DNA of 64,000 nucleotides from an uncultured Candidatus Saccharibacteria bacterium (GCA_964545165.1 CAZJEQ010000005.1:7072-71071), one strand, 5' to 3'. Counted from the first letter of the stretch, positions 30,112 through 64,000 are shown. The notes: a model not told the origin generated them from the letters alone. Numbers and translations: made by a program.

Positions 30112-30187
30112 TGGTGCCTGGGATCAGATTTGCACTGATGACCCTTCCCTCTTCAGGGGAATGCTCTACTAACTGAGCTACCCAGGC
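30112..30187 (-). tRNA. tRNA-Phe (GAA), CCA encoded
   Basis: Minus-strand sequence GCCTGGGTAGCTCAGTTAGTAGAGCATTCCCCTGAAGAGGGAAGGGTCATCAGTGCAAATCTGATCCCAGGCACCA. 7-bp acceptor, 4-bp D stem, 5-bp anticodon stem with loop CTGAAGA. T-loop reads TGCAAAT, which is non-canonical. Confidence 0.8.
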
Positions 30188-30582: not shown

Positions 30583-30608
30583 TCAGATCATTTTACCACT
30601 CAAATCAT

Positions 30609-30680
30609 TGCCCTCAGCAAGAATCGAACTCACATCGTTCCCTTAGGACGGGACTGCTCTATCCATTGAGCTATGAGGGC
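30609..30680 (-). tRNA. tRNA-Arg (CCT)
   Basis: GCCCTCATAGCTCAATGGATAGAGCAGTCCCGTCCTAAGGGAACGATGTGAGTTCGATTCTTGCTGAGGGCA. 7-bp acceptor, T-loop TTCGATT, anticodon loop GTCCTAA, one G.A at 27-43, no encoded CCA. Confidence 0.7.
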
Positions 30681-30735
30681 ACCGCAAAGGGCGCGTACGC
30701 ACAGCATACGCGCCCGTGAGGATTATTTCCAACGA

Positions 30736-33412: not shown

Positions 33413-33424
33413 ACTCTGATCTGT

Positions 33425-33498
33425 TGGTGCGGGATGAGGGAATCGAACCCTCGACCTATGCTTGGGAAGCACATGTTTTACCACTAAACCAATCCCGC
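33425..33498 (-). tRNA. tRNA-Gly (CCC), CCA encoded
   Basis: GCGGGATTGGTTTAGTGGTAAAACATGTGCTTCCCAAGCATAGGTCGAGGGTTCGATTCCCTCATCCCGCACCA; canonical cloverleaf with T-loop TTCGATT. Confidence 0.85.
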
Positions 33499-40032: not shown

Positions 40033-40071
40033 ATTAAAAGCAGAAAAGCGAAGCATTTCTGCTTCGCTTTC
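40033..40071 (-). terminator. intrinsic terminator of rnpB
   Basis: On minus strand GCAGAAAGCGAAGCA-GAAA-UGCUUCGCUUUUCUGC followed by UUUUAAU. Confidence 0.7.
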
Positions 40072-40075
40072 TGCC

Positions 40076-40405
40076 TGCATCGATAAGCCGGATTCTGTCG
40101 TGAGCAGTCATGTATCTGGGATGTGTGTTGCCACACACCTCGAGCGACACTTTCGTCAGGTCCAATTGGTTCCCGACGAACACGGTCTTGCACGCGGGTA
40201 GGATTTTTGCCGTTGCACCCTCTGTGTTTCCACAAAGGCTGATCCATACCTTTCGATAGAGGATCCCCTCGCCTCTCGGCTTGGGCGTCTCTGTTCGCAT
40301 CCCTATGCTTGCGCACGACGGGCGTTACCCGCTACCTTGCTGCTTCTCGCGAAGCGCGTGTCCGGACTTTCCTCCCCTTGCGGGGCGACTGCTTAATGCA
40401 GAGAG
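40076..40405 (-). ncRNA. rnpB: RNase P RNA (bacterial type A)
   Basis: On the minus strand GGGGAGGAAAGUCCGGAC (P4 5' half, complement of 40362-40372) and ACAGAAUCCGGCUUAUCG (P4 3' half, complement of 40087-40101). P3 hairpin CCCC-GCAA-GGGG; P1 pairing CUGCAU/AUGCAG. ORF-track entries 40026..40316 and 40034..40300 overlap it and are spurious. Confidence 0.8.
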
Positions 40406-50228: not shown

Positions 50229-50819
50229 CTACAATACTCCGCCCGATTCCTTGCACATTTTTCCTCGCTCGCTCGCTTTGAGACCCTCTGGCATTGCGTG
50301 TATCTCAAACACCGCGCTTTCAGCTTTCAGCTCGATGTCGTTGATCTTCGCTATTGAAATAACATATTCGCCGGGCCATACCGATCCCACTTTCCACGCG
50401 AGCTCCTGCGTCTTCAGTTCAATTTTGTTTTCCTTTGCGAGACCGCTTGCGATCGGCCCCACGGCCTCTCTTGTCCCAGCGTCCACAAGGACACTTTCCA
50501 GGGACTGGATCGTTGATGATGATTGTAGAGATATCTGATACGTGCAGCCCCCGTACAAGTCATCGTTTTTCTTGGGATACGCGAACATTACACGCAGGTC
50601 AGTTGATGTGGCTGCGGCTATGCTCTCAGGAGTCGTGGTCGCACCGTCCTCGCCATGTGTTTTGTCGACATGAATTGATGGGGTGTTTGCGATCGCGATA
50701 TACGAGGCGGCAACGTTATCAAGCGCGTCATTGAATTGACTGAGTGAATGGTATCCGAAAAACGCCGTGCCACCCACGAGCAGTAAGACCACCGAAGTAA
50801 TGCGCATCCAACTTTTCAT
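50229..50819 (-). CDS. hypothetical secreted protein (N-terminal signal/anchor)
   Basis: Trimmed to MKSWMRITSVVLLLVGGTAFFG... Confidence 0.45.
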   Translation of the reverse strand: MKSWMRITSVVLLLVGGTAFFGYHSLSQFNDALDNVAASYIAIANTPSIHVDKTHGEDGATTTPESIAAATSTDLRVMFAYPKKNDDLYGGCTYQISLQSSSTIQSLESVLVDAGTREAVGPIASGLAKENKIELKTQELAWKVGSVWPGEYVISIAKINDIELKAESAVFEIHAMPEGLKASERGKMCKESGGVL

Positions 50820-50862
50820 AATCTCAGCCATCACTGGCTATGCGATCGTATCTATTGCTACC

Positions 50863-51015
50863 CTAATCCTTCTTTTCTGCATCCGAGAATACGCCTCTGA
50901 TGCTTTTGATAGCGTCGCCTATGCCGCGAGCAAGTTCTGGGATCTTCTTAGGACCAAAGATCAACAGAAGAATAGCGGTCAGAATAATGATTTCAGTGGC
51001 TCCAAGTCCAAACAT
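50863..51015 (-). CDS. tatA: twin-arginine translocase subunit TatA/E (copy 1, divergent)
   Basis: Not in ORF track (50 aa): MFGLGATEIIILTAILLLIFGPKKIPELARGIGDAIKSIRGVFSDAEKKD. Its start overlaps tatC 3' end by about 23 nt in another frame. Confidence 0.7.
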   Translation of the reverse strand: MFGLGATEIIILTAILLLIFGPKKIPELARGIGDAIKSIRGVFSDAEKKD

Positions 51016-51724
51016 AAGATCTGCTGCTATTGAATAATATTGTCACTTCATACAACAACACAAGCGGGACTGTCATCGCCGCTAATGATAGGACGTCGGT
51101 TGGTGGAAGTAAAGCTGCCAGCAAGGCGAACACGAAATAGGCTATACGCCTCTTATCCCGGAGCGTCTGGGGTGTCATTATCCCCAGGCGCATGAGGAGC
51201 GTGAGCAGCAATGGGAACTCAAAAACAAACCCCAAGAGCGCTGCTGTGACAAATATTTCAGAGAGAAACTGACTGATATTCCAAATGTTGGCGATTCCGA
51301 GACTCACGTTGATGGCAGCAAAGAGCCCGAGCGCATAGTAAAGAATAAAAAATCCATACACAAAGCCGGCGATGAAGAGTGCGATGCTGACCGGAATTGA
51401 CTTCAATAGCCTGACCTTCTCACTGCTCGTGAGTGCCGGCGCAATAAAGACGTAAAAGCTGTAGATGACATACGGCGCCGAGGCGACGATGGCGAGGAAG
51501 AATCCGACATCCATGGCGACGGTCGCAAACTGGAATGGTGAGGTGGTGGCGATAACCACATCTTCAAAATGGACGAAGCTCAGTGCCTTTTTTAAAATGA
51601 TTCCTGCCGAGAGAAACCCGGTGACGAAAACAGAAATAAACAGAACAACGCCCCAATACAGACGATTGCGCAGATCTTCCAAATAGGGAAGAAATTTTTC
51701 CATGTCCATAGAGAAAGATTCCAA
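50993..51724 (-). CDS. tatC: twin-arginine translocase subunit TatC
   Basis: 243 aa, six TM helices, typical TatC topology. Confidence 0.8.
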   Translation of the reverse strand: MESFSMDMEKFLPYLEDLRNRLYWGVVLFISVFVTGFLSAGIILKKALSFVHFEDVVIATTSPFQFATVAMDVGFFLAIVASAPYVIYSFYVFIAPALTSSEKVRLLKSIPVSIALFIAGFVYGFFILYYALGLFAAINVSLGIANIWNISQFLSEIFVTAALLGFVFEFPLLLTLLMRLGIMTPQTLRDKRRIAYFVFALLAALLPPTDVLSLAAMTVPLVLLYEVTILFNSSRSYVWTWSH

Positions 51725-51849: not shown

Positions 51850-52014
51850 TTATTGTGTCCCCGTCTCCTTCTTGTCACCATCTGAAAACCCACTTCTGAT
51901 GTACTTGAGAGAATCGCCAATGGCTCGTGCAAGTTCTGGAATCTTCTTTGCACCGAAGAGCAGAACGAGGATGCCGGCCAAAATGATGAGCTCTCGAGCT
52001 CCTAATCCAAACAT
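51850..52014 (-). CDS. tatA: TatA/E (copy 2)
   Basis: ORF 51850..52056 trimmed to MFGLGARELIILAGILVLLFGAKKIPELARAIGDSLKYIRSGFSDGDKKETGTQ. Confidence 0.75.
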   Translation of the reverse strand: MFGLGARELIILAGILVLLFGAKKIPELARAIGDSLKYIRSGFSDGDKKETGTQ

Positions 52015-52246
52015 ACTTTTGTATTGCGTCCTAAATTTTATAATGACCAACCTCACACCTATACGAGGTTCGTCTTAATTACTGTGTCCCCGTCTCCTTC
52101 TTGTCACCATCTGAAAACCCACTTCTGATGTACTTGAGAGAATCGCCAATGGCTCGTGCAAGTTCTGGAATCTTCTTTGCACCGAAGAGCAGAACGAGGA
52201 TGCCGGCCAAAATGATGAGCTCTCGAGCTCCTAATCCAAACATACG
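51853..52246. repeat. tandem direct duplication (229-nt unit, 164 nt at 100% identity) carrying tatA
   Basis: 51853-52017 and 52082-52246 match base for base; the spacers differ. Confidence 0.85.
52079..52243 (-). CDS. tatA: TatA/E (copy 3, identical protein to copy 2; not in ORF track)
   Basis: Sequence 52083-52246 is identical to 51854-52017 and encodes the same 54-aa TatA; the only coding difference is a synonymous CAA-to-CAG. Confidence 0.7.
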   Translation of the reverse strand: MFGLGARELIILAGILVLLFGAKKIPELARAIGDSLKYIRSGFSDGDKKETGTQ

Positions 52247-52298: not shown

Positions 52299-53183
52299 CT
52301 ACCCTGCCACTCCCGCTGGCTCGGGCTCGGGAGCTATGACGGGCGTTGATGTCGAGGTTGGCTGCGTTTCTGGCTCTGGTTCTGGTTCGGCCTCAGCCTC
52401 TGGCTCTGCTTCTGCTTCCACTACCGGCTCGGGCTCCGGGTCTGGTTCTGGCTCTGCTTCCACTACCGGCTCCGGGTCTGGTTCGGGCTGCGGCTCTACT
52501 TCTGGCTCCGGTTGTGGCTCAGGTTCAGGTTCAGGATCCGGCTCGGGTTCGGGTTCGGGGTCCGGTGTCGGATTTACTACCGTAATACGATGGCGATTGA
52601 GCCATTCTGCCACCGCGGTCACGCCCGCCTGCCACGAGTCATACGTGCGCGTGTTGCCATCGTCATCATTACCCACGTTGCCGGGATTAGTGGTACTTAC
52701 CGCGAGTCCAACCGTACCGATGCGCGAATCTTGTTCCATGATCGCCACCATGAGTCTCGCATCTACGCTATAGGCGAGCGCAGCACTCATCACCATCTCC
52801 CCTGTTACCGGAGAGGTCGGATATTTGCCCCGAATATACGCTTCGGCTTGCTCTGCAGTATCCATCACCCCCATGGCGGCCAATATATTCATTATCTTCT
52901 CCTCATGCAGGGGGTCGGTCGCATACGAAGTAATGTCGTACTGGCCCAGCACAGCGACCGAGCCGTCGGTGATGACCTCGGCAAGCGACGCATCTTTGAC
53001 CGCCGCTGATGCTGACGCGTCAACCAGGAGACTCAGCTTAAAAAGCGTATCTTCCAGGGAGAGAATTTCTTTCTCAGCCGCGACAACGCGCTCCAAATCG
53101 CCACTCATGGTGGCATAATTTTGAGAAAGTTTGAATTCTCTCAACCTGTTATTGAGAAGTTGCACGAGATCTTCTACTCTCAC
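52299..53183 (-). CDS. peptidoglycan hydrolase (glucosaminidase-family domain) with N-terminal coiled coil and C-terminal (Pro-Glu)n low-complexity tail
   Basis: 294 aa. ...[13 protein letters not shown]...NPGNVG...[18 protein letters not shown] parallels the FlgJ/glucosaminidase motif AQAALESGWG...NLFGIK.... C-terminal roughly 100 aa is [13 protein letters not shown]... Confidence 0.55.
52336..52570. repeat. hexanucleotide-periodic (GGNTCN)n microsatellite-like tract encoding the (PE)n tail
   Basis: ggctctggttctggttcggcctcagcctctggctctgcttc... with period 6 over about 230 nt. Confidence 0.6.
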
Positions 53184-53205
53184 GCAAATATTATATCACG
53201 CGCAT

Positions 53206-53661
53206 TTATTTCAAACCCAAAAACTTCGCGACGGTGAGCGTGCGCATGAGCTGATCATGCTCCTCTTCAGACAAACCACTTCCGCTATTCGAAGTCGTTA
53301 CAATCATGCCTGCGGAGTTGTTTGAGCGTACCGATACTTGATTCAGGTTGACTCTATCAGCGATGTTGTTGTTGGCACCGACCAGGTTTACCGCGTACTG
53401 GCCATCCTCAAAGGTGATGGTGTACGGGGGGATGATTGCAACCACACGTGCGAGCGTCAGCCCTCCGAGTGTCACTTCGGTATTGTGAGTGTGAGTATCT
53501 GAAAAGGGCACCCCTTCAACGTTGTCCTCAAGGTCCTTCAACGTCATGCGAAAAGCGTCTACGTCGAGCTCCCTAATTTCAGAGGGACTCGACTGAACAA
53601 GCGTCATGTCCGCCTTCGGGACGCTAATTACTTTGGTCGCCCAATTGATAGTGATGGCCAT
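53206..53661 (-). CDS. hypothetical protein (151 aa) in fibre-protein operon
   Basis: Complete ORF; 1-nt gap to the upstream gene. Confidence 0.45.
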   Translation of the reverse strand: MAITINWATKVISVPKADMTLVQSSPSEIRELDVDAFRMTLKDLEDNVEGVPFSDTHTHNTEVTLGGLTLARVVAIIPPYTITFEDGQYAVNLVGANNNIADRVNLNQVSVRSNNSAGMIVTTSNSGSGLSEEEHDQLMRTLTVAKFLGLK

Positions 53662-53662
53662 A

Positions 53663-56600
53663 CTATTGATCTGCGATCATGAGGACCGTCGTGTCGAGTC
53701 CGGTAGCGGTGATCGTGCCCACGATGGTGCTCGTTTTGTAGTAGGTCGCGGCAGAGCCCTTCCTGATCTTTCCTGTCACTGGTTGCGAGGCAGAATATTC
53801 AAAACTACTGGTTGTCACCTTGCCGTTTGAACCCGTTAAGCCAGACAATATGACTGCAGTGGATGTAACCGTGCCTGTTGCTGGCGTTGCCGGGGACCCA
53901 CTTACGGTGTAATCGTACGCATTTGTCGTGACGTTGGAGATAATATAGGTGCCGTTGTATTCGTCTTGGTTGGCCCCTCGGATAATAATTGTCTGTCCTT
54001 CTGACATGCCGTGCGACGAATGGGCAACGGACGCGGTAGCACCGGAGCGCGTGATCGTTACTGTCGCATTCGCGGGGAGTGGCCCGCCCGTATCTGCTTC
54101 CATCAAGACCCGCGCCCCTTCGATAGCAGCGAGGGTATCGGCATCCTTTGCGGTCACCGTGACGCTGACCGTATCGAGCGGGTACGTCGCTGCTCTATGG
54201 GTGGACGTGGCATTAGTGAGCATATACAGCGAGGTAATGGCCGTGGCGTTCGTCGTCGAGGTCGAGATCTTCACCTTGAGCGGTGTGCCACTTGATGCGG
54301 AAATCGTTTCGTTTGGCAGCTGGTTGAATCGCAATGTGCCGGAGACCGTACCGATGTTCGCGATGGTCACGACGATCGTCGTGCCATTGGTGATGCTTTG
54401 CACCTGTGCGAGCGGTGCAATGTTTGTGCCAAACACATAGTCATTTTGTGCTACCCCCGTGGTACTCGTCATCGTCACGTTCGTCTGACCACTGGTGCCT
54501 CCCCCACCCGCTCGGGGATATGACAAATTCTTAAACGTGGAGCCCCCGTTTACCGAGTAGGTGACGTCGTAGTTGGTAAGTGTACCTCCCGCCATGACCG
54601 CTTCTGCGGCGATAAAGCTGCCGTGCCCTTTGAGATTATAGGGATAGGTAAATGTGACATTGTCATTGACGACCGGCATGTAGAGTCCTCCCGCTGAGGT
54701 AAAGGCTGCGGTGCCGCCCAGTGCGACCTGTGAAGAGGTGTCTGAGGTCGACTCATTCATCTGCAGTGCCACGCGACCATTGATAGGCACAAAGGTGAGC
54801 GTGCCCGACGTCGAGCCGGCATTGAGACAGGTGAATTGAAACGTATTGGCGGTATTCACAGGCGAGGCGACCGCCGTGATCTGGGTGAGCGTCTTGACGC
54901 CAAGGACAATAGCCGCAGCCGAGCTTGTCACGGTCACTAAAATGGTATCGCCGACTCGGAGGCCATGAGCAGTACTGGTGACAGTCGCGACGGTTGTCGC
55001 GCGGGACCAGGAAACACCGGAGATGTTGGCTGGTTGATTTGTCGTATAGGTGTCTAGAAAGTGCGTACCATACGTGGATGTTTGGGCGGTCAGCGCTGGC
55101 GTCGACTGCAAGCCCTTGATCTGCGTATTAAGCATCGGCACCAATTGCACGCCCCACTCCGTGCCCCACACGTCCTCGAGGAGGAGATTCTTCACCGAGT
55201 TGTCACCCGTGGTCATGATGCCCGTGCGAAGATGCGGGGTGTAGCACCGCTGGATCTTGACCGTGTTGGCGGCGCCTCCCGCGACGAAGTTGACCAAGGC
55301 GCCGGCCATGCAGGGATAATAAGAAAGGTTCTGCCCCGTCGTCTGTCCCGCGTTGGTCACCGTCACGGTAAAGGTGTCCGCCGTCGGTGCGGACGCCAGT
55401 GTCCACAAGGTAGCGGTGGTCGTGGTAACGACTTTTGGCGCCACATCAGAGCACATGTTGACGGCGATGATATCGCCGGTCTTGAGGCCGTGGGCAGTTT
55501 TGGTGACCGTTGTAGTTGTCGTTGACCTGGTCCAGGTGGCATCGACGTAGGCACCGCCCATATCCAAGGGAGACGCTGCCGTGCCGAGATTGCGCAGAAT
55601 GATATTGCTGCATCCGGCGATACCAATGTTGAGTACTCCCGAATAGGGCTGACACAGTGTGAGCCCCCCAAAGCTCAGCCCGTCAAATTTCAATGCGTAC
55701 GAAGCGGCAGTTCCTAAATCCCATACATACATGGGCAGTGCCGTACCGGTCGTCGTCGCGGGATTGTCAAAATAGGTGGTGTTGGTGAATGTCATAGTAT
55801 TACACCCCACTATCAGTGCGCGACCGCCGCCCAGAATGGGCGTGACGTACGTGGTCGTCACCACACGCACCAAGCTATAGCTTCCCGTTGTTGCGTTGCC
55901 GGCTTTGACCAGCGACATCGCAAAATCGTTGGTGACCGTCAGCCCCGACACGTCAGTCAGCGATACGACATACGCGCCAGAGCCGGCCTGCGCTGCTCGA
56001 AACCATTTGCAGCCGGAGATGGTGCCGCCGGCGAAACAAAGGCTCATCGTCAGTGCTATTTGGGTGTTGGCTGCTTCTTGACCGACGTTCACATTGCTCC
56101 AGGCAATGGGAGACGCGATTTCAGTGGCAACAAGTGCCGTGAGAATACCCACGTTGGTGAGCGCCAGCGAATACGGCTGGTTAATGTTCATGTACCACCC
56201 GATGCTTGCTTTATCGATATCGATCGCTCCGCCGCCGGTCGTCGCAAACTCGAACCGCGTGGCGAGCGTGGCATTGGGGAGCACATTTGCTGTTCTCGCG
56301 GCCGTCGTGCAATTCGCAAAGAAAATATTCGGTATGCGGATCTTTCTACCGCTTGGGACGATGTACCCACCAGTGGAATTCGTTCCATCATGCCCGAATC
56401 TCAGTACTCCGGCAGTGGAGATCCAACACACCTTACCGCGCACTGCGTCAGTTGCGATACTTGCCGCGAGCGCGGTAAGTGAGCCTGCACAGGGGTAAAA
56501 TTCATAGACGCCGCTCGACGTTGCCGTTTCCACTTCTACACCGGCATGATACTGGAGCATGCCGCTACTCGGTATCTGATAGGTCGTTGCACGATTACCA

Positions 56601-57148
56601 TCCGTCGTTCCGATTTCGAAATAATCCCCGCGCACTTTAAATAAATTGAGGCGGTTGACCGTGCAGGTACCGGCTTCGTCTCCCACTATTTCGAGCCAGC
56701 CAGCCACATCTGCTCCCGTGGCTGAGGCACTGATACCGGTCAGCGCTCCCGAGCTGTACGCCACCGAATTCCACTGTTTGATCTTGATATACCCCGATGC
56801 GGGCATTGATGCGCCGGTCGCGGTGGAGGCAGCGGTCAGCGCAGAATACACCCCGATCAATTTACCGGACGCACTGCCTTTGGTAATGGTCGTATTCCAC
56901 GCGGGCACGGTACCCGATCCGGTGTTATACGGGATCAGTCGCACGAGTGTGGAATTGACTTCCACCGTACCGCCGAGCGTTGCGGAGAGTGTGACCGTCC
57001 CCCACGAGGCGGAGGTGGTCTGGTTCAGACCGACGCGGGTATCTTGGTCTACCGTCAGGTAGCCACCGTTCACATTGTAGGTATCTCCTCCTCCTTTTGA
57101 GGTCAGCTCGTCTATGTTTTGTGCGGTCGTGACCGTAAACGTCGCCAT
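53663..57148 (-). CDS. very large Thr/Ser/Gly/Ala-rich fibre-like (tail-fibre/adhesin-like) protein, 1161 aa
   Basis: No signal peptide. About 20% Thr. C-terminal triplicated roughly 60-aa module around HGLKTGDIIAV, HGLRVGDTILV and HGMSEGQTIIIRGANQDEYNGTYII. TATAAT 6 nt upstream of ATG. Confidence 0.55.
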   Translation of the reverse strand: MATFTVTTAQNIDELTSKGGGDTYNVNGGYLTVDQDTRVGLNQTTSASWGTVTLSATLGGTVEVNSTLVRLIPYNTGSGTVPAWNTTITKGSASGKLIGVYSALTAASTATGASMPASGYIKIKQWNSVAYSSGALTGISASATGADVAGWLEIVGDEAGTCTVNRLNLFKVRGDYFEIGTTDGNRATTYQIPSSGMLQYHAGVEVETATSSGVYEFYPCAGSLTALAASIATDAVRGKVCWISTAGVLRFGHDGTNSTGGYIVPSGRKIRIPNIFFANCTTAARTANVLPNATLATRFEFATTGGGAIDIDKASIGWYMNINQPYSLALTNVGILTALVATEIASPIAWSNVNVGQEAANTQIALTMSLCFAGGTISGCKWFRAAQAGSGAYVVSLTDVSGLTVTNDFAMSLVKAGNATTGSYSLVRVVTTTYVTPILGGGRALIVGCNTMTFTNTTYFDNPATTTGTALPMYVWDLGTAASYALKFDGLSFGGLTLCQPYSGVLNIGIAGCSNIILRNLGTAASPLDMGGAYVDATWTRSTTTTTVTKTAHGLKTGDIIAVNMCSDVAPKVVTTTTATLWTLASAPTADTFTVTVTNAGQTTGQNLSYYPCMAGALVNFVAGGAANTVKIQRCYTPHLRTGIMTTGDNSVKNLLLEDVWGTEWGVQLVPMLNTQIKGLQSTPALTAQTSTYGTHFLDTYTTNQPANISGVSWSRATTVATVTSTAHGLRVGDTILVTVTSSAAAIVLGVKTLTQITAVASPVNTANTFQFTCLNAGSTSGTLTFVPINGRVALQMNESTSDTSSQVALGGTAAFTSAGGLYMPVVNDNVTFTYPYNLKGHGSFIAAEAVMAGGTLTNYDVTYSVNGGSTFKNLSYPRAGGGGTSGQTNVTMTSTTGVAQNDYVFGTNIAPLAQVQSITNGTTIVVTIANIGTVSGTLRFNQLPNETISASSGTPLKVKISTSTTNATAITSLYMLTNATSTHRAATYPLDTVSVTVTAKDADTLAAIEGARVLMEADTGGPLPANATVTITRSGATASVAHSSHGMSEGQTIIIRGANQDEYNGTYIISNVTTNAYDYTVSGSPATPATGTVTSTAVILSGLTGSNGKVTTSSFEYSASQPVTGKIRKGSAATYYKTSTIVGTITATGLDTTVLMIADQ

Positions 57149-57161
57149 GTCACCATTATAA

Positions 57162-57317
57162 TCATTTTATAATGATAATGCGTCCGTCTTGTGTGTCCTG
57201 GCACGTGAGCGAGCCCGCGACCTCTTGATTGCCGTGGACATTGACGTACACAGTACTATCGCCTGGCATCGTGGCCAGCATATTGGAGAGGCTGTTGACG
57301 AGTGCTTGGAGTTTCAT
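57162..57317 (-). CDS. possible 51-aa protein between zinc-ribbon gene and giant fibre gene (not in ORF track)
   Basis: MKLQALVNSLSNMLATMPGDSTVYVNVHGNQEVAGSLTCQDTQDGRIIIIK; starts 8 nt after the zinc-ribbon gene stop. Confidence 0.3.
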   Translation of the reverse strand: MKLQALVNSLSNMLATMPGDSTVYVNVHGNQEVAGSLTCQDTQDGRIIIIK

Positions 57318-57325
57318 TCGTCATT

Positions 57326-57520
57326 TTATTGCTCGCTCGAGCTCTCCTTCCACATTTTGAATGATTCTTTCTGATGCTTCACCGGCACTTTCCGCTCCTT
57401 AGGACTCTCTACCACCACTTCCACATATGGCGTATGACAAAAGGGACATGCGGTGTCCGTCTCGGTGTGCATAAAGTGTTGCCCACACTGCTCATTCGTA
57501 CATTTGACGACCTTATCCAT
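57326..57520 (-). CDS. small zinc-ribbon protein (64 aa)
   Basis: CTNEQC...CPFCH (two CxxC pairs). Confidence 0.5.
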   Translation of the reverse strand: MDKVVKCTNEQCGQHFMHTETDTACPFCHTPYVEVVVESPKERKVPVKHQKESFKMWKESSSEQ

Positions 57521-57540
57521 GGTATTGCATGTTTGAGATA

Positions 57541-59655
57541 CTAAGCATCTGACGTTCTGATGGCGGTCGTCGAACCACCCGATATGCCGAGCGTACCCGT
57601 CGTCTCGAAGGTCTTGATAGGTGACCCCGCGCCGCCGTCGCGAACACGGATGAAAAGGTTTCTGTCTGCGGCGTAGACACCGGTGAATGTAGCAGTCGTC
57701 GCATCGGCAAGCTTGTCTATGTAGCTCAAGAAGACATTGGCGCCATTGGAGGCGTTATTTCCCGAGAAGTCTGTTGAGCTGATGGTAAAGGTCGACGATG
57801 CCCATGCGGAATAGGCATGGCGTGTGTATTGGCCGTCAGCGCGCTTGATTCGGATCGTCCCCGTGTTTGGCGTGTCTGTCGGAATCGAGCCATTGACCAC
57901 CACCGACGTGACCGTGCCCCCCGTGAGCGCACCATTGAGGTTCATCTGTCTCAGATCAATATCTGCTGACACCGAGCCATTGACGGCAGCTGTGGCAGAT
58001 GAGGTGCCGCCCGTGATGGTGGAGTTGTCGGTCGGCACCGAGCCCGTCAACATCTGACCGATAGACATAAAGCCCGTGGTGCCATTGTCGTACAGCTCAG
58101 CGAGGCGCGCGGTGCCGGAGGGCGAGGTAAAGGTAAGCGTTTCGCCAATAGTGAAGGGGCCTCCGGATTCCGCATCATATTGAAAACGGTAGCCCTGGGG
58201 AGCGACGAGCACGCGATCCTCGCCTGAAACGATACCGGAAACCGTAAAGGTGACGAAGTTTGGCGCCTGGTATTGCGTGTTGGTAAGGTCGAAGACCTTG
58301 TCATTTTGACTCAAGTCAGCAGACTCGATGCCCACACCGTACGCACCGATGATAGCTGAACCAGTCGAAGCACCGATAAATGGTGTCGAAACGGTTCTCT
58401 CGGTTACCGTGACGTTTACGAGACAAGTGGCACCGGATGTGCCTCCCGTGATCGTCTGGTTGTCTGTCGGCGCAACCCCGGTGAGGAGCTGGATCCACAT
58501 ACTCGTTGCCGCGTTGACATCGTTTACCGCAAGCATCTGCCCCGTACCGCCTGACCACGAGACTGCTTCATACGCTGAGAAATCAGTCCCACCCTGGCCA
58601 TCGGTAGTGATCTGATGCGTGATACCGCGGAAGAGCTCGCCATTCAATCCGTAGAGGGTGGTCCCCGAGCCATCTCGAGAGATGTACTTCATCCGCTCGT
58701 AGAACTGGTTGATGGTGTAGGTGTCTTTGTTCCACTCTGAGTAGTAGTACTCGTCAGTGGCATCGTTGTTGACGTCGATGCCGTTGTAGCCAGAGGTGGT
58801 GTTGGTGATCGACGTATACGTCGCGATCGTCGTCGCCGAGGTGGTGTTGTTGAGATCCGATGCGGCCGCGAGCGCCACCACGTTGATACCGCGCGTTGTA
58901 CCGTTGACCTTAAATTCGAGGTACGTCCTCCCCCATTCACGAGTGGTGGCGATAAGGCGGCGACCGTCGGTATCAGCGCCACCGGTGCGCACCTTCATCA
59001 TAAAGTTGTGCGAAATACCGTTGGCAGAATCACTGTTGAGCCCGTCTACGATGAAATACGCATCCGAAGCATCCCAATCGTTGTCAGTGCCCCCTTGGAG
59101 GGTCCCCGTGATGGTCGTACCGGTGTTTCCGGTAATCGTGGCGAACGAACCGTCTGTGGTATTCCTGATTCGGTAACCAATCCATTGGTTCGTTGTCCAC
59201 GATTTCGTGCTATCCGTGAGGACCGCGGCATTCGCTGACCCCGTGTGCGTCCCTCCTTCTGAATAGTTCCACCAATCATCTGAGAGCACCGCACCAGCTT
59301 GAATGAATTGCACCGCGGTGCCGATGGGCGCGAGGATCTTGATACCGTCGTAGATAACAGCTCCCGATGACTGGATAATGGAGCCATCGTAAATGTGTTC
59401 GGCTGCGGTGTCGTCAATATTCCATCCGTTTATAAGAGTGACGATGTTATCAGTTGAGCGCTCAGAGGGAGTGGTATCAGTGATGTCGAGCTCATCATTG
59501 CCGGAATATCCCGCATCGTCCGCGAAGTCTTGGATGGCGCGGTGAAATTCGATGACCGTAGCATACGAGGGTGACGCTCCCGTGTGATCATGACCGGTAT
59601 AGCGAATGTTCCCTGTTTGCCTATCGAGTGACCAGTCTGCTGCTACGAATGCCAT
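57541..59655 (-). CDS. large Thr/Gly/Ser/Asn-rich fibre-like protein, 704 aa
   Basis: MAFVAADWSLDRQTGNIRYTGH...; no signal peptide; composition and size resemble phage tail fibres or cell-surface fibres. Confidence 0.55.
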   Translation of the reverse strand: MAFVAADWSLDRQTGNIRYTGHDHTGASPSYATVIEFHRAIQDFADDAGYSGNDELDITDTTPSERSTDNIVTLINGWNIDDTAAEHIYDGSIIQSSGAVIYDGIKILAPIGTAVQFIQAGAVLSDDWWNYSEGGTHTGSANAAVLTDSTKSWTTNQWIGYRIRNTTDGSFATITGNTGTTITGTLQGGTDNDWDASDAYFIVDGLNSDSANGISHNFMMKVRTGGADTDGRRLIATTREWGRTYLEFKVNGTTRGINVVALAAASDLNNTTSATTIATYTSITNTTSGYNGIDVNNDATDEYYYSEWNKDTYTINQFYERMKYISRDGSGTTLYGLNGELFRGITHQITTDGQGGTDFSAYEAVSWSGGTGQMLAVNDVNAATSMWIQLLTGVAPTDNQTITGGTSGATCLVNVTVTERTVSTPFIGASTGSAIIGAYGVGIESADLSQNDKVFDLTNTQYQAPNFVTFTVSGIVSGEDRVLVAPQGYRFQYDAESGGPFTIGETLTFTSPSGTARLAELYDNGTTGFMSIGQMLTGSVPTDNSTITGGTSSATAAVNGSVSADIDLRQMNLNGALTGGTVTSVVVNGSIPTDTPNTGTIRIKRADGQYTRHAYSAWASSTFTISSTDFSGNNASNGANVFLSYIDKLADATTATFTGVYAADRNLFIRVRDGGAGSPIKTFETTGTLGISGGSTTAIRTSDA

Positions 59656-59746: not shown

Positions 59747-60658
59747 TCACGAATAGCTCAAAGAGGCGCGATTATCCCAGATCTGATCAAACACTCCCGT
59801 ACCTGCCCATTGGATAACGATGCCAGAGGTGGAGTCGACTTTTTTGATACGCCATGACGCGGCAGATGTAGCTGATCCGATCGCCGCTTCGCCGACATAA
59901 TCGACTGAGCCTACCGTTGCCAGCCGAAGCGAGAATTTGAATCCTCCAAAAGAAATCGTTTGCAGCGTTGTCTCGGTAGACGCTGATGCAGGGAGAGCTG
60001 AGCTCAACACGTCGACCTGCACATGGCGGTCGGCATCGACGAGGCCGCTTTTGGCAACATCTCCCGAGTCACTAAAGCTGCTGGATCCCGCGCCCGGAAG
60101 CGAGGTGACCTTGACTGCCAACGACCCCGAATCAAACGTGAGGTCTGAGGTCTTCAGCAAGGTCGAGAGCGTTTCTTGGGTGGCCGGATTTATTCGGGCA
60201 TTGGAAGCATTTTTGACCCCCACGACACCGGTCGTCGGTGAACTGCCCATGATTAAAGCATCCGCTCCTTTTGGCATGAGCTGTGAGGCAACGAGTCCGG
60301 CACCAGCAATGCCCGCGGCTTTGATAAAGGTCCTTCTATGCGTATCTCCGACCGTTGTTTTGGCGGAGAGGTCCAGCGGTATCGTAGGTTTCTGCTCCTG
60401 CGAAACTGCTGCTACCTGTTCTGTCGTCGACGAGAAATCTGATCCGGCACGCCGTCTTCTCACCAAAGAAAAAGAGTGCGTATTGGGCAAAAACGCGCTT
60501 GCATCATATGCGAGCCCCGCACCAGCGAGTGCGGAAGACACCACTGGAGATTCATCATCAGAAATTGTTGCTGTCGCTGACGCTGTCGCAAACGAAAAAT
60601 CTGACCCGACATGCCGTCTTCGCACCAACGAAAAAGAATGTGTGTTTGGTAACAACAT
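59747..60658 (-). CDS. hypothetical exported protein with duplicated N-terminal leader and an internal twin-arginine-like motif (RRTFIKAAGIAGAG)
   Basis: 303 aa. Residues 1-22 (MLLPNTHSFSLVRRRHVGSDFS) are repeated at residues 55-77. GGAG 15 nt upstream of ATG. Confidence 0.45.
   Translation of the reverse strand: MLLPNTHSFSLVRRRHVGSDFSFATASATATISDDESPVVSSALAGAGLAYDASAFLPNTHSFSLVRRRRAGSDFSSTTEQVAAVSQEQKPTIPLDLSAKTTVGDTHRRTFIKAAGIAGAGLVASQLMPKGADALIMGSSPTTGVVGVKNASNARINPATQETLSTLLKTSDLTFDSGSLAVKVTSLPGAGSSSFSDSGDVAKSGLVDADRHVQVDVLSSALPASASTETTLQTISFGGFKFSLRLATVGSVDYVGEAAIGSATSAASWRIKKVDSTSGIVIQWAGTGVFDQIWDNRASLSYS
60432..60657. repeat. 66-nt direct repeat x2 (about 80% identity, 160-nt spacing) spanning the 5' end of gene 59747..60658
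   Basis: 60432-60497 vs 60592-60657. Confidence 0.6.
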
Positions 60659-60783
60659 TTTTCTATATTTTCACTCCAGTATAGCAAGCGCTTCACTGCA
60701 ACATCACGCATGCTTTCGCGTGAGCGTGGATTGTATGTGCTACACTTTTGTCAATCGGAAATGGCTCACGCAAAGCGTTTTTA

Positions 60784-63700
60784 TGGATAATCGCGCCATC
60801 AAAATCTCAAGCTATTTTTTCTTGGCGCTTTTTGTTTTTTGTTTTTGCGCGACCGATATTGCATATGCCAGTTATCAAAAGATCGCTCCGGGCGATACGG
60901 TCACGTTGGGTGAATTTGTCTTTGACGATAATTTTGTCCCGACCACAACGCCGTGCACTATCGGTATAACCAGCCCTGCGAATGTCGAGGTGGTGCCTTC
61001 GACCACGCCCATGACTGCCAACAGTGACGGCTGGCACTACTATTCCTACACGACCGCCTCCAATGCAGCTTCCGGTGTCTGGCCATCGGTGATGATCTGC
61101 GGATCAACGGCAGCCGGTGACAGGGTTTTGGTGGACAAAAGCTTTATCGTTGATTGGTCGGTGGTCTCGACGAGCACTATTAAAGGAGTGGTGGACGGCA
61201 GCCTGACGGTGGCGACGACATCGCTCTCGGCAGTCATCAACGCCAACACCAACGCCGCCGTACTATCCGCTTCATCAAGCTTGTACGCGACCCTTCCCGC
61301 TACGATCTGGTCGTTCAGCGGTAGGACGCTCACTTCTTTTGGATCGCTCGTGGCTGATACTGCCGCTGCCGTGTGGGCATCCGGCACGCGCTCCCTCACC
61401 ACCTTCGGCTCGCTCGCAACTGAGATCTGGGCAAGCGCGACCCGCACACTTACAGGCGCGGGCTTGGATACCGGCTCACTTGCCACCCTGTCCGACGTGC
61501 AGACAGCCACGAGTAGCTTGGCTTCTGCAATTACGGCAGGTACGAGTGCCGTCAATAGCAATACGAATACACAGGTCTTGAGCGCCTCATCATCACTCGC
61601 TGCAGCGATTACAGCTGGTACAAGTGCTGTTAACAGCAACACGAATGCGCAGCTGCTCGCCGCGTCCACGTCACTCGCGAATTTCATCAACAGCAATAGC
61701 AATGCGACGATTCTTGCGGCATCGACATCACTTGCAGCCTACCTTAGTGCACACACCGACGCGGCGTCAACATCGATTGCCACCTTCGTGAACGCAAACA
61801 CCAACAACACGGTATTAGCCGCCTCGACATCGATCGCTGCGTTTGTGAATGCGAATACCAATGCGCAACTCCTTGCAGCCTCTACGTCGCTTGCCACCTT
61901 CGTGAATGCGAATACCAACAACGCCGTATTCATGGCGTCGACATCCCTGGCTTCTGCCATTACTGCGGGTACGAGTGCGGTGAATACGAATACCAACAGC
62001 ACGGTATTGGCTGCTTCCACATCTCTCGCCACCTTCGTAAATGCGAATACCAATAGCGCGGTGTTGGCAGCATCCACCTCACTCGCCACATCGATTCCGA
62101 TCAATGTATGGAATGCCACGAGCCGCTCGCTCACCACCTTCGGCACACTCGTGAGCGATGTTGCCTCAGCTGTGTGGTCCTCGGGCACGCGCTCCCTCAC
62201 CACCTTCGGATCGCTCGCAACTGAGATCTGGGCAAGCGCGACACGTACGCTCACCGGCGCAGGACTCGATACAGGTTCACTTGCCACTGTCTCTGATGTA
62301 CAAACGGCCACGAGTAGCTTGGCTTCTGCGATTACGGCAGGTACGAGTGCCGTCAATAGCAATACGAATAGCACCGTATTGGCGGCATCCACTTCACTCG
62401 CGAATTTCATCAACAGCAACAGCAATGCGACCATCCTTGCGGCATCTACCTCACTCGCCGCGTACCTCAGCGCTCACACCGACGCGGCGTCCAGCTCGAT
62501 CGCTTCGTTTGTAAATGCAAACACCAACAGCACCGTGTTAGCCGCGTCGACATCGATCGCATCGTTCGTGAACGCTAATACCAATGCGCAAGTCCTGAGC
62601 GCTTCCTCATCTCTCGCTGCAGCTATTACGGCAAGCACGGGCGCGGTGAATACGAATACCAACAGCGCGGTGTTGGCAGCATCTACCTCGCTCGCCACCT
62701 TCGTAAATGCGAATACGAACAATGCAGTGTTGGTGGCTTCCACATCACTCGCTTCAGCGATTACAGCAGGCACGAATGCCGTGAATACGAATACAAATGC
62801 TGCCGTATTGTCGGCTTCATCAAGCTTGTACGCGACCCTTCCCGCTACGATCTGGTCGTTCAGCGGTAGGACGCTCACCTCGTTCGGTACGCTTGTGAGC
62901 GACGTGACTGCTGCAGTGTGGGCCTCGGGCACGCGATCCCTCACCACCTTCGGCTCGCTCGCCACTGAGATCTGGACCAGCGCGACCCGCACACTTACAG
63001 GCGCGGGACTGGATACCGGCTCGCTCGCGACCGTCTCTGATGTGCAAACGGCGACGAGCTCGCTCGCTTCTGCCATCGTGGCCGGAACGAGCGCAGTGAA
63101 CAGCAACACGAATGCGCAGTTGCTCGCCGCGTCCACGTCGCTCGCGACCTTCATCAACAACAATAGCAATGCGACCATCCTTGCAGCATCGTCATCGCTC
63201 GCGGCGTATCTCAGCGCTCACACCGATGCGGCGTCAACATCGATTGCCACCTTCGTGAACGCAAACACCAACAACACGGTATTGGCAGCCTCAACATCGA
63301 TCGCTGCGTTTGTGAATGCGAATACCAACAACACTGTGTTGGCAGCGTCTACGTCACTGGCCTCTGCAATTACCGCCGGAACGAGCGCGGTGAATAGCAA
63401 TACCAATAGCACCGTATTAGCCGCGTCCACATCGCTCGCTTCAGCAGTTGCGGCAGGTACGATTGCAGTGAACAACAATACCAACAGCGCCGTGTTGGCA
63501 GCATCTACGTCGCTTGCCACATCGATCCCGCTCAACGTCTGGAGTGCGACGAGTCGCTCGCTCACCAGCTTCGGCACACTTGTGAACGATGTGGCCACCG
63601 CAGTGTGGTCCTCGGGCACCCGCTCCCTCACCACCTTCGGATCGCTCGCCACTGAGATCTGGACGAGCGCGACACGTACGCTGACGGGTGCAGGGCTCGA

Positions 63701-64000
63701 TACCGGATCGCTCGCCACCTTCTCTGACGTCCAGACCGCCACGAGCTCACTCGCATCAGCCATTACTGCTGGTACGAGCGCGGTGAATACCAACACGAAT
63801 GCACAGGTCTTGAACGCTTCCTCATCTCTCGCTGCAGCAATTACGGCAGGTACGAGTGCCGTCAATAGCAATACGAATGCACAGGTCTTGAGCGCGTCTT
63901 CGTCTCTCGCTTCTGCAATTACCGCCGGAACCAGCGCGGTGAATGCGAATACGGATGCGCAGGTGCTTGCGGCGTCCAGCTCACTCGCCTTTTCGATCCC
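60784..64000 (+). CDS. giant secreted repeat protein (>1072 aa, 3' end beyond window) built from nested 18-aa repeats
   Basis: Uninterrupted plus-strand reading frame from ATG 60784 to the window edge, so absent from the ORF track. Signal peptide MDNRAIKISSYFFLALFVFCFCATDIAYA. 54-nt units of type LAASTSLATFVNANTNNxV. The four minus-strand ORFs at 61046..63871 are its antisense shadows. Confidence 0.7.
61271..64000. repeat. nested coding repeats: 54-nt (18-aa) units inside roughly 0.7-0.8 kb super-repeats (four copies)
   Basis: 63-nt identical blocks at 61271-61333 and 62815-62877. TIWSFSGRTLTSFG / NVWNATSRSLTTFG motif recurs at about 61291, 62093, 62839 and 63531. Confidence 0.8.

Follow-up and report, generated by a model that had tools for sequence, protein, structure and literature searches.

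A 64,000-nt stretch from an uncultured Candidatus Saccharibacteria bacterium (GCA_964545165.1 CAZJEQ010000005.1:7072-71071; hereafter the window) carries six tightly packed genes, two of them for large phage-fibre-like proteins, next to genes of the twin-arginine translocation (Tat) system. This raises the question whether the block is part of a prophage or a phage-type module that the cell uses for itself. The best explanation is that it makes up the variable core of an envelope locus conserved in Patescibacteria, in which a phage-type cassette is set inside a host-specific frame.

Gene block and selection

Translation of the window recovered all six ORFs of the block on the minus strand (52299-59655), with intergenic gaps of 20, 8, 13, 1, and 22 nt in the order g704, g64, g51, g1161, g151, and g294. 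Homolog searches returned 4017 homologs for g704 and 1007 for g1161, which excludes chance ORFs for both. Between the window and one syntenic genome, pN was 0.085-0.12 and pS 0.70-0.82 (saturated); with pN so far below pS, the block genes are under purifying selection. The six genes are thus real and intact and do not constitute a stray prophage fragment. An inert prophage remnant lying by chance beside the tat genes would fit the phage homology of three of the proteins (see below), but it is hardly credible in view of the intact long ORFs, the pN/pS values, the recurrence of the same frame in many genomes with differing outer flanks, and a Pfam search of the window genes that found no other phage genes.

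The sequence-only reading had described the two large proteins as Thr/Ser/Gly-rich, fibre-like, and devoid of signal peptides. The composition agrees (T, S, G, and A together account for 44% of the 704-aa protein and 47% of the 1161-aa protein), and a Kyte-Doolittle scan of the first 60 aa found no N-terminal hydrophobic segment in any of the six block proteins (maximum 19-residue mean ≤1.07). The term fibre-like holds in the sense of phage host-recognition proteins, but not in the sense of thin fibres: the predicted structures of both are compact, multi-domain, and all-beta (pTM 0.83-0.84).

A three-gene cassette shared with phages

As judged by homology, g704, g1161, and g151 make up a three-gene cassette that is of phage origin or common to phages. 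Searches of Pfam, NCBIfam, and PDB sequences gave no significant match for any of the three proteins, and PHROGs gave for g1161 a single short match of unknown function and nothing else. g1161 (53663-57148, minus strand; 1161 aa) is a tailspike-like protein with a predicted beta-helix core and beta-barrel modules. Its AlphaFold (AF2) monomer model (pLDDT 89, pTM 0.84) yielded 19 Foldseek matches in the PDB at E ≤ 1e-3, most of them phage tailspikes or capsule depolymerases and a few beta-helix glycosidases. The best match was 4ru4 (E 3.7e-5, probability 1.0, but TM only 0.17/0.28), followed by 7w1c, 4y9v, and HK620; LKA1 gp49 (Pseudomonas phage), the Klebsiella K1 lyase, and AP22 gp54 (Acinetobacter phage) belong with HK620 to the tailspikes and depolymerases that match the beta-helix best. 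The model therefore predicts a right-handed parallel beta-helix, as in tailspikes, which are usually trimeric. Homologs of g1161 occur in phage virion modules (MW202577, L006, L007, and L045), a 61-aa stretch shares 66% identity with the annotated tail spike of Stappia phage SI01, and PF12195 was found in some homologs. These results bear out the assignment of the large proteins to the phage host-recognition type.

g1161 differs from known tailspikes in its low TM values, in the lack of a sequence-level family match, in its chromosomal, Tat-linked setting here, and in the placement of its conserved part. Tailspikes keep an N-terminal virion-attachment domain and vary distally, whereas in g1161 the N-terminal and central parts are replaced among loci and the part that presumably attaches the protein is the C-terminal ∼170 aa (aa 994-1161; 53666-54169, minus strand), the sole part kept in every version of the locus and the only one left in L008, L010, and most phage loci. 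An earlier claim of a triplicated C-terminal module stands in part. Repeat analysis showed a clear relationship between two copies (aa 537-615 and 712-790; z = 17 vs. shuffles) and a weaker one to a divergent third (aa 1030-1100; z 2-4), and the three beta-barrel modules are distributed along the C-terminal half instead of being grouped at its end. We propose that g1161 is the predicted specificity-determining, tailspike-like protein of the locus.

The large protein is swapped wholesale even among close relatives. This is unlike a coat protein and weighs against the idea that the cassette and the giant surface protein described below build an S-layer-like envelope layer, from which phages captured the cassette secondarily. 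The cassette is also widespread, without the frame, in phages of unrelated phyla, and its proteins have no signal peptides, so that we regard such a coat as very unlikely.

g704 (57541-59655, minus strand; 704 aa), a multi-domain all-beta protein, is the most conserved member of the cassette and probably serves as the hub of the fibre complex. Its identity of 50-80% across genomes with GC contents of 38-64% is not what host-recognition proteins usually show; it may point to a structural role and speaks against the explanation favored here. g151 (53206-53661, minus strand; 151 aa), the third member, has a conserved N-terminal part of ∼120 aa, and in many phages this domain bears a variable C-terminal extension for a total of up to 828 aa (89 homologs extracted from loci, 142-828 aa). 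It gave no significant PDB match, and PHROGs matches were marginal and limited to 3 of 50 homologs.

Cassette exchange between phages and chromosomes

Versions of the cassette with 45-80% identity are found in widely differing uncultivated phages and also in prophages of bacteria outside the Patescibacteria, the latter on the complete chromosome of a member of the Thermodesulfobacteriota and on an Acidobacteriota contig of 520 kb; IMG/VR alone contains 274 g704 matches. Its neighbors are tail collar and integrase genes in L006, tail and virion proteins in L031, and Beta_helix, LamG, and Phage_tube_2 genes in L045 (the Thermodesulfobacteriota chromosome), and in the complete phage MW202577 the g1161 homolog closes the structural module. 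In phage L007 the cassette adjoins portal, protease, HK97 capsid, and tail tube genes; its place within the head module there counts against the fibre reading.

Frame and cassette have incongruent histories. Compared with the window, L034 is 71% identical in tatC and 71% in g294, but only 53% in g704, and its large protein is non-homologous; L005 is 52-53% identical in tatC, but 88% in g704 and 83% in g1161. Chromosomal copies fall into at least six groups of the g704 tree, interleaved with phage copies. This incongruence indicates that the cassette has been exchanged with phages. Between the chromosomal cassette and those of bona fide phages, identity reaches 81%, and this value, the interleaved tree, and the tailspike-like nature of the variable protein would also be expected if the cell displayed or released the receptor-binding proteins of its own phages, including the depolymerase-like beta-helix, as an anti-phage device: the receptor would be occupied or destroyed, adsorption blocked, and cassette swaps would track the phages currently infecting. 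However, the phages with the cassette are often prophages of Thermodesulfobacteriota or Acidobacteriota, so that the cassette is not specific to the carrier's phages, and no known defence genes were noted nearby (without a PADLOC scan). Receptor masking therefore appears quite unlikely.

The Patescibacteria-type frame

The frame, identified from conserved gene content, consists of g303, g64, g294, two tatA genes, tatC, g201, and a divergent gene for a giant, predicted Sec-exported surface protein. Its genes are conserved only in Patescibacteria-type loci in housekeeping contexts. The nearest relatives of the locus are labelled Saccharibacteria/Saccharimonadales, and the lineages of the chromosomal loci are ones we take to belong to Microgenomatia, Paceibacteria, and Saccharimonadia. 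Among freshwater CPR genomes, Tat was reported only in these three groups (PMC9166423).

To the left of the block, Pfam identified TatA (two copies), TatC, Vut_1, DAO, RNR, MurJ, and LepA, and within about 20 kb it found no genes for phage heads, packaging, or integrase; to the right, up to the window end, there are only g303 and the giant repeat protein. The window takes in 64 kb of the 72-kb contig. The observation that no phage genes lie near the block was thus correct, and so was the direction drawn from it, namely a domesticated phage-derived module or surface-fibre apparatus. A larger prophage extending beyond the window, which had been offered as another option, was rejected: capsid, portal, terminase, tail, and integrase genes are absent from the window flanks and from the syntenic loci L005, L008, L010, and L126, where housekeeping genes flank the locus. 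The tat locus, the Tat-motif protein, and the giant repeat protein had been taken as borders of the block; they are conserved components of the same locus.

Three small or medium-sized genes of the block were found, among the loci examined, only in the Patescibacteria-type chromosomal version. g64 (57326-57520, minus strand; 64 aa) has the four Cys (CxxxxC...CxxC) of the zinc-ribbon protein it had been called, with a weak family match (Pfam E 0.03), and is confined to the chromosomal frame, with homologs in 0 of 80 viral loci. g51 (57162-57317, minus strand; 51 aa) is weakly conserved, with a homolog of 51% identity in L005 and short N-terminal matches in L008, L009, and L010. g294 (52299-53183, minus strand; 294 aa) has no signal peptide; its N-terminal region is coiled-coil-like and is followed by a GH73/lysozyme-like domain (aa 130-197; 52593-52796) and then by a Pro/Glu-rich tail of ∼90 aa (aa 200-294; 52302-52586). 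The tail agrees with the earlier description of a glucosaminidase with a Pro-Glu tail; the enzyme assignment is less firm, with a Pfam Glucosaminidase match (E 5.7e-5, 24.2 bits) below the gathering threshold of PF01832 (30.2 bits; g294 scores of 24.2-25.4 bits), but all 11 of 11 homologs match the family (best E 3.4e-7). The AIMEQDS motif contains the invariant Asp152-Ser153 and a nearly invariant Glu150; when the g294 profile was searched against PDB sequences, its best match, to the MltC catalytic motif, was not significant (E 0.41). The N-terminal 200 aa are conserved at 60-78% and the tail is variable, and homologs contain Ser/Thr/Pro linkers and Ig-like repeats of extracellular type. None of the three genes turned up in the 80 scanned IMG/VR loci or in the other loci examined that have a phage context, and the interpretation of the block as a phage lysis module in the order fibre, chaperone, fibre, lysin is therefore abandoned.

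Downstream lie tatA paralog 1 (52079-52243; Pfam TatA_B_E, E 5.3e-13), tatA paralog 2 (51850-52056; E 9.4e-13), tatC (50993-51724; Pfam TatC, E 3.4e-38), and g201 (50229-50834), all on the minus strand. g201 has an N-terminal membrane segment (hydropathy 1.53 at residue 9), and homologs of 35-50% identity follow tatA/tatC in L005, L016, L018, L027, L034, and L126. A g294 homolog leads to tatC in the window and in these same six loci, that is, in 7 of 7 loci that reach far enough. The very divergent loci L030 (GC 0.40, tatC 33% identical) and L039 keep tatA and tatC together with RR-motif, g704-like, g151-like, and giant-N-like genes.

g303 (59747-60658, minus strand; 303 aa), upstream of the block, is predicted to be a Tat-signal protein. 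Its signal (aa 107-135; 60254-60340) consists of RRTFIK, a weakly hydrophobic, Tat-like h-region (mean hydropathy ∼0.9, counted from the sequence), and ADA-L; it was recognized by NCBIfam TIGR01409 (aa 108-134; 21.5 bits, cut-off 16.7), and Pfam TAT_signal scored 15.9, under the cut-off of 22.7. The combination of [KR]R.[FL][LIVM]K and AxA is present in 119 of 120 homologs, with KR instead of RR in 97 of 119. The signal is not N-terminal: the motif starts at residue 107 in g303 and at a median of 83 (range 18-211) in the family, preceded by one to five translated FLPNxxSFxL repeats. In g303 the repeats, M(L/F)LPNxxSFxLxRR, are at aa 1-22 and 55-77 (60593-60658 and 60428-60496), and the two copies differ mostly by synonymous changes. 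Within the C-terminal part (about aa 190-303; 59750-60091) is a ∼70-115-aa domain that also occurs in phage collagen-like fibres. By HMM, this domain ends the ORF just upstream of g704 in nine phage-context loci (13-116 nt away in eight, 762 nt in the ninth), and 7 of these 9 ORFs have collagen-like GXY repeats.

The giant surface protein (plus strand, 60783-64000 and beyond the window end) is divergent from g303 and begins with a Sec-type signal peptide and a conserved N-domain (aa 29-230; 60867-61472), followed by Ala/Ser/Thr/Asn repeats of 19/26 aa (tandem periods of 57 and 78 nt). The N-domain adjoins a g303 homolog at 55-76% identity in 16 distinct Patescibacteria loci; divergent versions (35-40%) adjoin g303 in L034, L038, and L042, and copies of 25-32% identity follow tatC in L030 and L039.

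Possible export and surface display

That an envelope locus encodes its own Tat machinery suggests that borrowed phage host-recognition proteins are displayed on the cell's own surface. We thus propose that the locus encodes a fibre apparatus of the cell surface, with g303 serving to export or anchor its folded phage-type parts, a reading whose chances we judge to be about evenly balanced. The cassette proteins would fold and assemble in the cytoplasm, as in phage-infected cells, and may then dock on the phage-like C-terminal domain of g303. The TatAC translocase of the locus would move the g303-bound complex across the membrane; Tat is, to our knowledge, the only general pathway that moves folded proteins. 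g294 may open the cell wall locally, the complex would reach the surface, and the beta-helix protein may bind or cut a glycan on a partner cell, in adhesion or host recognition. Repeated cassette swaps with phages would then alter the specificity. If this is true, ultra-small Patescibacteria display phage-derived host-recognition proteins on their own surface.

Two parts of this scheme have precedents. A minimal, substrate-dedicated TatAC operon is known in Bacillus subtilis (phoD-tatAd-tatCd), and a signal-less partner bound to a signal-bearing subunit is exported as a hitchhiker in E. coli HybO/HybC. Here, too, the gene of a Tat-signal protein is accompanied by tatA/tatC of its own, and the proposed co-export follows the hitchhiker principle. 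The signal, however, is preceded by 20-210 residues with repeated FLPNxxSFxL motifs, and the putative cargo is phage-type and far larger. The position at residue 107 and the prevalence of KR speak against the Tat reading, and the cassette proteins sum as monomers to >200 kDa, larger than any established Tat hitchhiker cargo we know of. Adjacency to tat could merely reflect g303 as a Tat substrate, with the other proteins leaving otherwise.

In that case the surface apparatus would be the same and only g303 would use Tat; g704, g1161, and g151 together with g294 would exit by hydrolase-assisted permeabilisation or lysis of a subpopulation and rebind to the wall. [quoted passage not shown] The signal-less, lysozyme-like g294 directly after the cassette and a cargo seemingly too large for known Tat transport favor this route. 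PblA/PblB, however, are encoded in an intact inducible prophage, whereas the locus described here is chromosomal and conserved, has a Tat-signal adaptor and tatAC, and shows no prophage and no recognizable holin-like gene, the lysin-like g294 being its only counterpart of the pair. Moreover, the linkage to tatA/tatC persists in very divergent versions without a recognizable g294. We consider non-Tat export of the cassette a minor possibility.

The proposed Tat-dependent apparatus may also be compared with multi-component phage-derived systems. In the branched receptor-binding-protein systems of Klebsiella phages (PMC13579863), several fibre or spike genes likewise stand in a row, and conserved parts for attachment go together with exchangeable ones for specificity; no sequence relation to the cassette was found. 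Tailocins (R- and F-type pyocins) have tail tube and baseplate genes, with or without a sheath, and are compared here along with other domesticated tail modules; no sheath, tube, baseplate, or tape-measure genes occur in the window or the syntenic loci, where the distal fibre part alone is present. Shared with tailocins are the retention of phage structural genes without head genes and the exchange of specificity genes with phages.

The block is part of a larger chromosomal locus

The six minus-strand ORFs lie where the sequence-only reading had placed them, separated by intergenic gaps of 20, 8, 13, 1, and 22 nt, and encode proteins of 704 aa (g704, 57541-59655), 64 aa (g64), 51 aa (g51), 1161 aa (g1161, 53663-57148), 151 aa (g151, 53206-53661), and 294 aa (g294, 52299-53183). 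The large proteins are Thr/Ser/Gly-rich as described (Thr+Ser+Gly+Ala amount to 44% of g704 and 47% of g1161), and both indeed lack a signal peptide, with no N-terminal hydrophobic segment in either. A module of g1161 had been called triplicated: two copies are clear (aa 537-615 and 712-790; z = 17), but the third (aa 1030-1100) is divergent. The putative (PE)n-tailed glucosaminidase g294 has a Pro/Glu tail of ~90 aa; its Glucosaminidase match is weak and sub-threshold, yet present in 11/11 homologs. It can be called a sub-threshold GH73-like protein only.

The window carries an RNase P RNA (bacterial type A, 40068-40404, minus strand, 129 bits) and three tRNAs, namely tRNA-Phe (30112-30187), tRNA-Arg(CCT) (30608-30681), and tRNA-Gly(CCC) (33425-33498); these are ordinary chromosomal markers, and the window is bacterial chromosome. 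A 496-aa ORF (31994-33484) overlaps tRNA-Gly at its listed start and probably begins further downstream. Genes for LepA, MurJ, ribonucleotide reductase, an oxidoreductase, a Vut_1 transporter, TatC, and two TatA occupy the 20 kb left of the block, and the GC content of the block is in line with that of its surroundings. A promoter scan of the locus gave background level only, and the sites found in a terminator scan were weak and intragenic.

The outer flanks of the chromosomal loci vary among genomes and consist of housekeeping genes; therefore, the conserved unit is the whole locus and not a prophage, and the suggestion that the block belongs to a larger prophage did not hold. The tat locus, the Tat-motif protein, and the giant repeat protein, previously taken as borders, all belong to this same conserved locus. 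A complete prophage was rejected on these flanks and on the membership test, in which a tailocin failed as well. We concluded from these comparisons that the locus, larger than first described, is a conserved putative envelope operon, linked to Tat, whose fibre cassette is exchangeable with phages. A search of the literature on the locus and on Patescibacteria found no description of it.

A cassette shared with phages

Comparison of the window proteins with 127 related loci separated a cassette from a frame. The cassette has three members: g704; a large protein that shares only the C-terminal ∼170 aa with g1161; and g151. In two phage loci (L007 and L116) it is surrounded by terminase, portal-MuF, prohead protease, HK97 capsid, and tail tube genes. 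It is accompanied by a tail-collar fibre gene and an integrase in phage locus L006, and by tail and virion structural proteins in phage locus L031. The cassette was also found on a complete Thermodesulfobacteriota chromosome beside Beta_helix, LamG, and Phage_tube_2 genes (L045), and, together with portal- and protease-like genes, on an Acidobacteriota contig of 520 kb (L040). In IMG/VR, g704 had 274 matches, and the contigs concerned measure 4 to 315 kb. Because the head genes of L007, used as probes, found almost nothing in the other phage loci, the cassette-bearing phages have no common backbone. GC content varies between 38% and 64% across them, yet g704 keeps 45-80% identity. In L007/L116 (8107-13932) the cassette sits between the portal-MuF and prohead protease/HK97 capsid genes, away from the tail genes, a position odd for tail fibres that may hint at a head-associated role. 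A 205-kb JGI contig (L001; 4729-18238) is jumbo-phage-like, encoding LAGLIDADG/GIY-YIG endonucleases and a split RNA polymerase beta/beta'; its g1161 homolog (67% identical) has no g704 or g151 within 10 kb.

No match to g704, g151, or g51 was found in Pfam, NCBIfam, or PDB sequences, nor to g704 and g51 in PHROGs. Homologs of g151 gave marginal PHROG matches in 3 of 50 cases (best E 0.0044), and g1161 gave a single 67-aa match of unknown function. Among 50,697 deposited phage genomes, g704 had zero matches and g1161 two: a hypothetical protein of 854 aa, encoded at the distal end of the structural module in MW202577, a complete phage of 39.6 kb, and a 61-aa stretch of an annotated tail spike (66% identical). 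The families are large, with 1007 homologs of g1161 and 4017 of g704 retrieved in searches; at 50% identity, the g704 family falls into 1190 clusters within a set of 1.84 billion representatives. Phage members of the g151 family frequently carry a variable C-terminal extension, up to a total length of 828 aa. Independently of the chromosomal locus, an unannotated and widespread cassette of phage structural genes is defined by g704, g151, and the C-terminal domain of g1161; of these, the g704 family is absent from cultured-phage databases.

AlphaFold models were confident for g1161 (pLDDT 89, pTM 0.84) and g704 (pLDDT 90.8, pTM 0.83). The best PDB matches of the g1161 model are phage tailspike beta-helix depolymerases (4ru4, E 3.7e-5; 7w1c; 4y9v; HK620), at low TM-scores. 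With this tailspike-like fold and a cassette present in bona fide phages, the phage-derived origin proposed earlier points in the right direction. Compared with known tailspikes, g1161 has the fold and the phage context, but departs from the usual N-terminal anchor rule. The similarity of g704 to the C-terminal region of g1161 (BLASTP E 4e-5 over 138 aa) was not significant in profile-profile comparison (probability 1%), and a paralogous relationship is a lead only. By analogy, the block would work like a domesticated phage host-recognition module.

The frame around the cassette

The frame genes are found in Patescibacteria-type loci; none occurs in the 80 viral loci that were scanned or in the further loci of phage context that were inspected; a phage lysis module was rejected on the absence of g64, g51, and g294 from the 80 viral loci. 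Upstream of the cassette, g303 (59747-60658, minus strand) has a twin-arginine signal above the NCBIfam cut-off that is kept in 119/120 homologs, mostly as KR and followed by AxA. It has the motif of Tat substrates but not its usual position. Its N-terminus (aa 1-77; 60428-60658, minus strand) contains two copies of a ∼12-aa repeat, M(L/F)LPNxxSFxLxRR, which occurs in 1-5 copies in g303 homologs, always upstream of the twin-arginine signal and each followed by a Ser/Thr/Glu-rich spacer. Most of the nucleotide changes that separate the two window copies are synonymous, and the repeats are therefore translated. In at least nine phage-context loci, the ORF immediately preceding g704 also ends in the C-terminal domain of g303 (∼70-115 aa), and seven of these ORFs contain collagen-like Gly-X-Y repeats.

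The chromosomal version holds, inside the cassette, the zinc-ribbon protein g64 and the weakly conserved g51. Downstream, g294 has no signal peptide; its first 200 aa are 60-78% conserved, and the family tails beyond are low-complexity or Ig-like, of extracellular type. In one locus (L016, 15912-17855), a g294 homolog, again without signal peptide, has a tandem-duplicated hydrolase-like domain and then Ig/HYR-like repeats, an architecture that by its sequence looks clearly extracellular. In 7/7 loci extending far enough, g294 is followed by tatC, tatA, and g201, a protein with an N-terminal membrane segment. Two tatA copies are present in the window and in two other chromosomal loci (L005 and L126). 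At 52217-52230 and 51988-52001 (minus strand), the window's tatA paralogs share an identical 24-nt stretch, GAGCTCGAGAGCTCATCATTTTGG, flagged as terminator-like in the scan; the identity probably reflects recent tandem tatA duplication. The giant repeat protein (60783-64000, plus strand), divergent from g303 in orientation, has a signal peptide of Sec type and a conserved N-domain of 200 aa, which adjoins g303 in 16 distinct loci (55-76% identity) and three more (35-40%), and follows tatC in two divergent loci. Minus-strand ORFs at 61046-63871 are antisense artefacts of its repeats.

Selection and probable exchange of the cassette

Comparison with the syntenic locus L005 gave a non-synonymous divergence of 0.085-0.12 from the window, at saturated synonymous sites; therefore, the genes are maintained. 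An inert prophage remnant, the last of four rival explanations, is disfavoured, since selection on the genes and the conserved frame both speak against it.

Identities to the window suggest that frame and cassette have different histories. L005 is only 52-53% identical in tatC and 60-61% in g294, but 88% in g704 and 83% over the full length of g1161. The reverse is seen in L034 (tatC 71%, g294 71%, g704 53%) and L126 (tatC 66%, g294 77%, g704 50%), in both of which the large protein is homologous at the C-terminus only. The g704 of L126 shares 72% identity with that of phage L031, whereas no other chromosomal g704 is more than 51% identical to it. When 103 g704 sequences were ordered by neighbour joining, phage copies were interspersed among the 22 chromosomal ones, which formed at least six groups. 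In close relatives of the window the large proteins are quite different, with 2993 aa in L010 and 882 plus 1899 aa in L008; a Pfam search of these alternative proteins, and of those in L126 and L034, yielded next to nothing. Saturation of synonymous sites in cassette and frame alike defeated a dS-based test for recent transfer from one to the other of the window and L005, and hence the argument for swapping rests on the incongruent identities and the g704 tree. The simplest reading of these would be repeated cassette replacement by recombination with phages inside a vertically inherited frame. In L126 (10824-11078), the g303 and g704 homologs are separated by an 84-aa GIY-YIG (homing-endonuclease-like) ORF, which sits exactly at the frame/cassette boundary and may be a trace of the exchange route.

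A tentative model for surface display

Phage fibre proteins fold and assemble in the cytoplasm, and the general route for moving proteins that are already folded is Tat. The locus supplies a Tat-signal protein with a phage fibre-end domain, its own TatAC, a wall hydrolase-like protein, and surface partners, and this combination led us to propose a Tat-export model, in our view the likeliest mechanism, at about even odds. The cassette proteins would dock on g303, Tat would carry or anchor them outside, and g294 would aid their passage through the wall. The tailspike-like g1161 could then act as the specificity element of a surface fibre apparatus, whose obvious use in an epibiotic bacterium would be recognition of the partner cell. 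In its full form the model holds that, in Patescibacteria, a dedicated TatAC and a Tat-signal adaptor with a phage-fibre domain export whole, cytoplasmically folded phage-type fibre/tailspike complexes as a host-recognition organ, with specificity renewed by cassettes captured from phages, including those of the bacteria they live on; we consider this possible, although rather unlikely. Weak points of the Tat-export model in general are that the Tat motif is internal to g303, that KR is commoner than RR in the family, that the cargo is very large, that g704 is unusually well conserved, and that the cassette lies in the head module of phage L007. The likeliest rival keeps the same surface apparatus, which would leave the cell by hydrolase-assisted release as with PblA/PblB (PMC2920869). 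Receptor-masking defence against phages ranks second and an S-layer-like coat third.

In its full form the model, if true, would mean that proteins are displayed by a new route, and would give the host choice of epibiotic ultra-small bacteria a molecular basis. To our knowledge, only type IV pili and a few adhesins have been implicated so far in how Patescibacteria (CPR) recognize and attach to hosts; the locus is a concrete candidate, in which a swappable phage-type cassette for specificity is coupled with machinery for export. It also suggests a purpose for the Tat system in minimal Patescibacteria genomes, and hints that phages and epibiotic bacteria exchange modules for host recognition.

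Distribution and divergent versions

The locus was found under Saccharibacteria, Paceibacteria-type, and Shapirobacteria lineage labels, which we take to belong to Microgenomatia, Paceibacteria, and Saccharimonadia. Tat in freshwater CPR has been reported only from these three groups (PMC9166423). Strongly divergent versions occur in a Shapirobacteria MAG (L030; GC 0.40, tatC 33% identical) and in L039, both with an RRxFLK membrane protein, g704-like genes, a g151-like gene, tatA, tatC, and a giant-N-like gene. The RRxFLK protein has additional N-terminal membrane segments, and both loci (L030, 2700-14140; L039, 2481-11852) contain two g704-like paralogs and a CxxCxxCC cysteine-rich protein. 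Five contigs labelled 'uncultured Gammaproteobacteria' (L014, L015, L018, L021, and L043) carry g303 and g64 homologs 40-77% identical to those of the window, and L018 additionally carries g294, tatC, and g201 homologs. With a GC content of 0.42-0.45 in the four measured, these are probably mis-binned or mislabelled Patescibacteria contigs.
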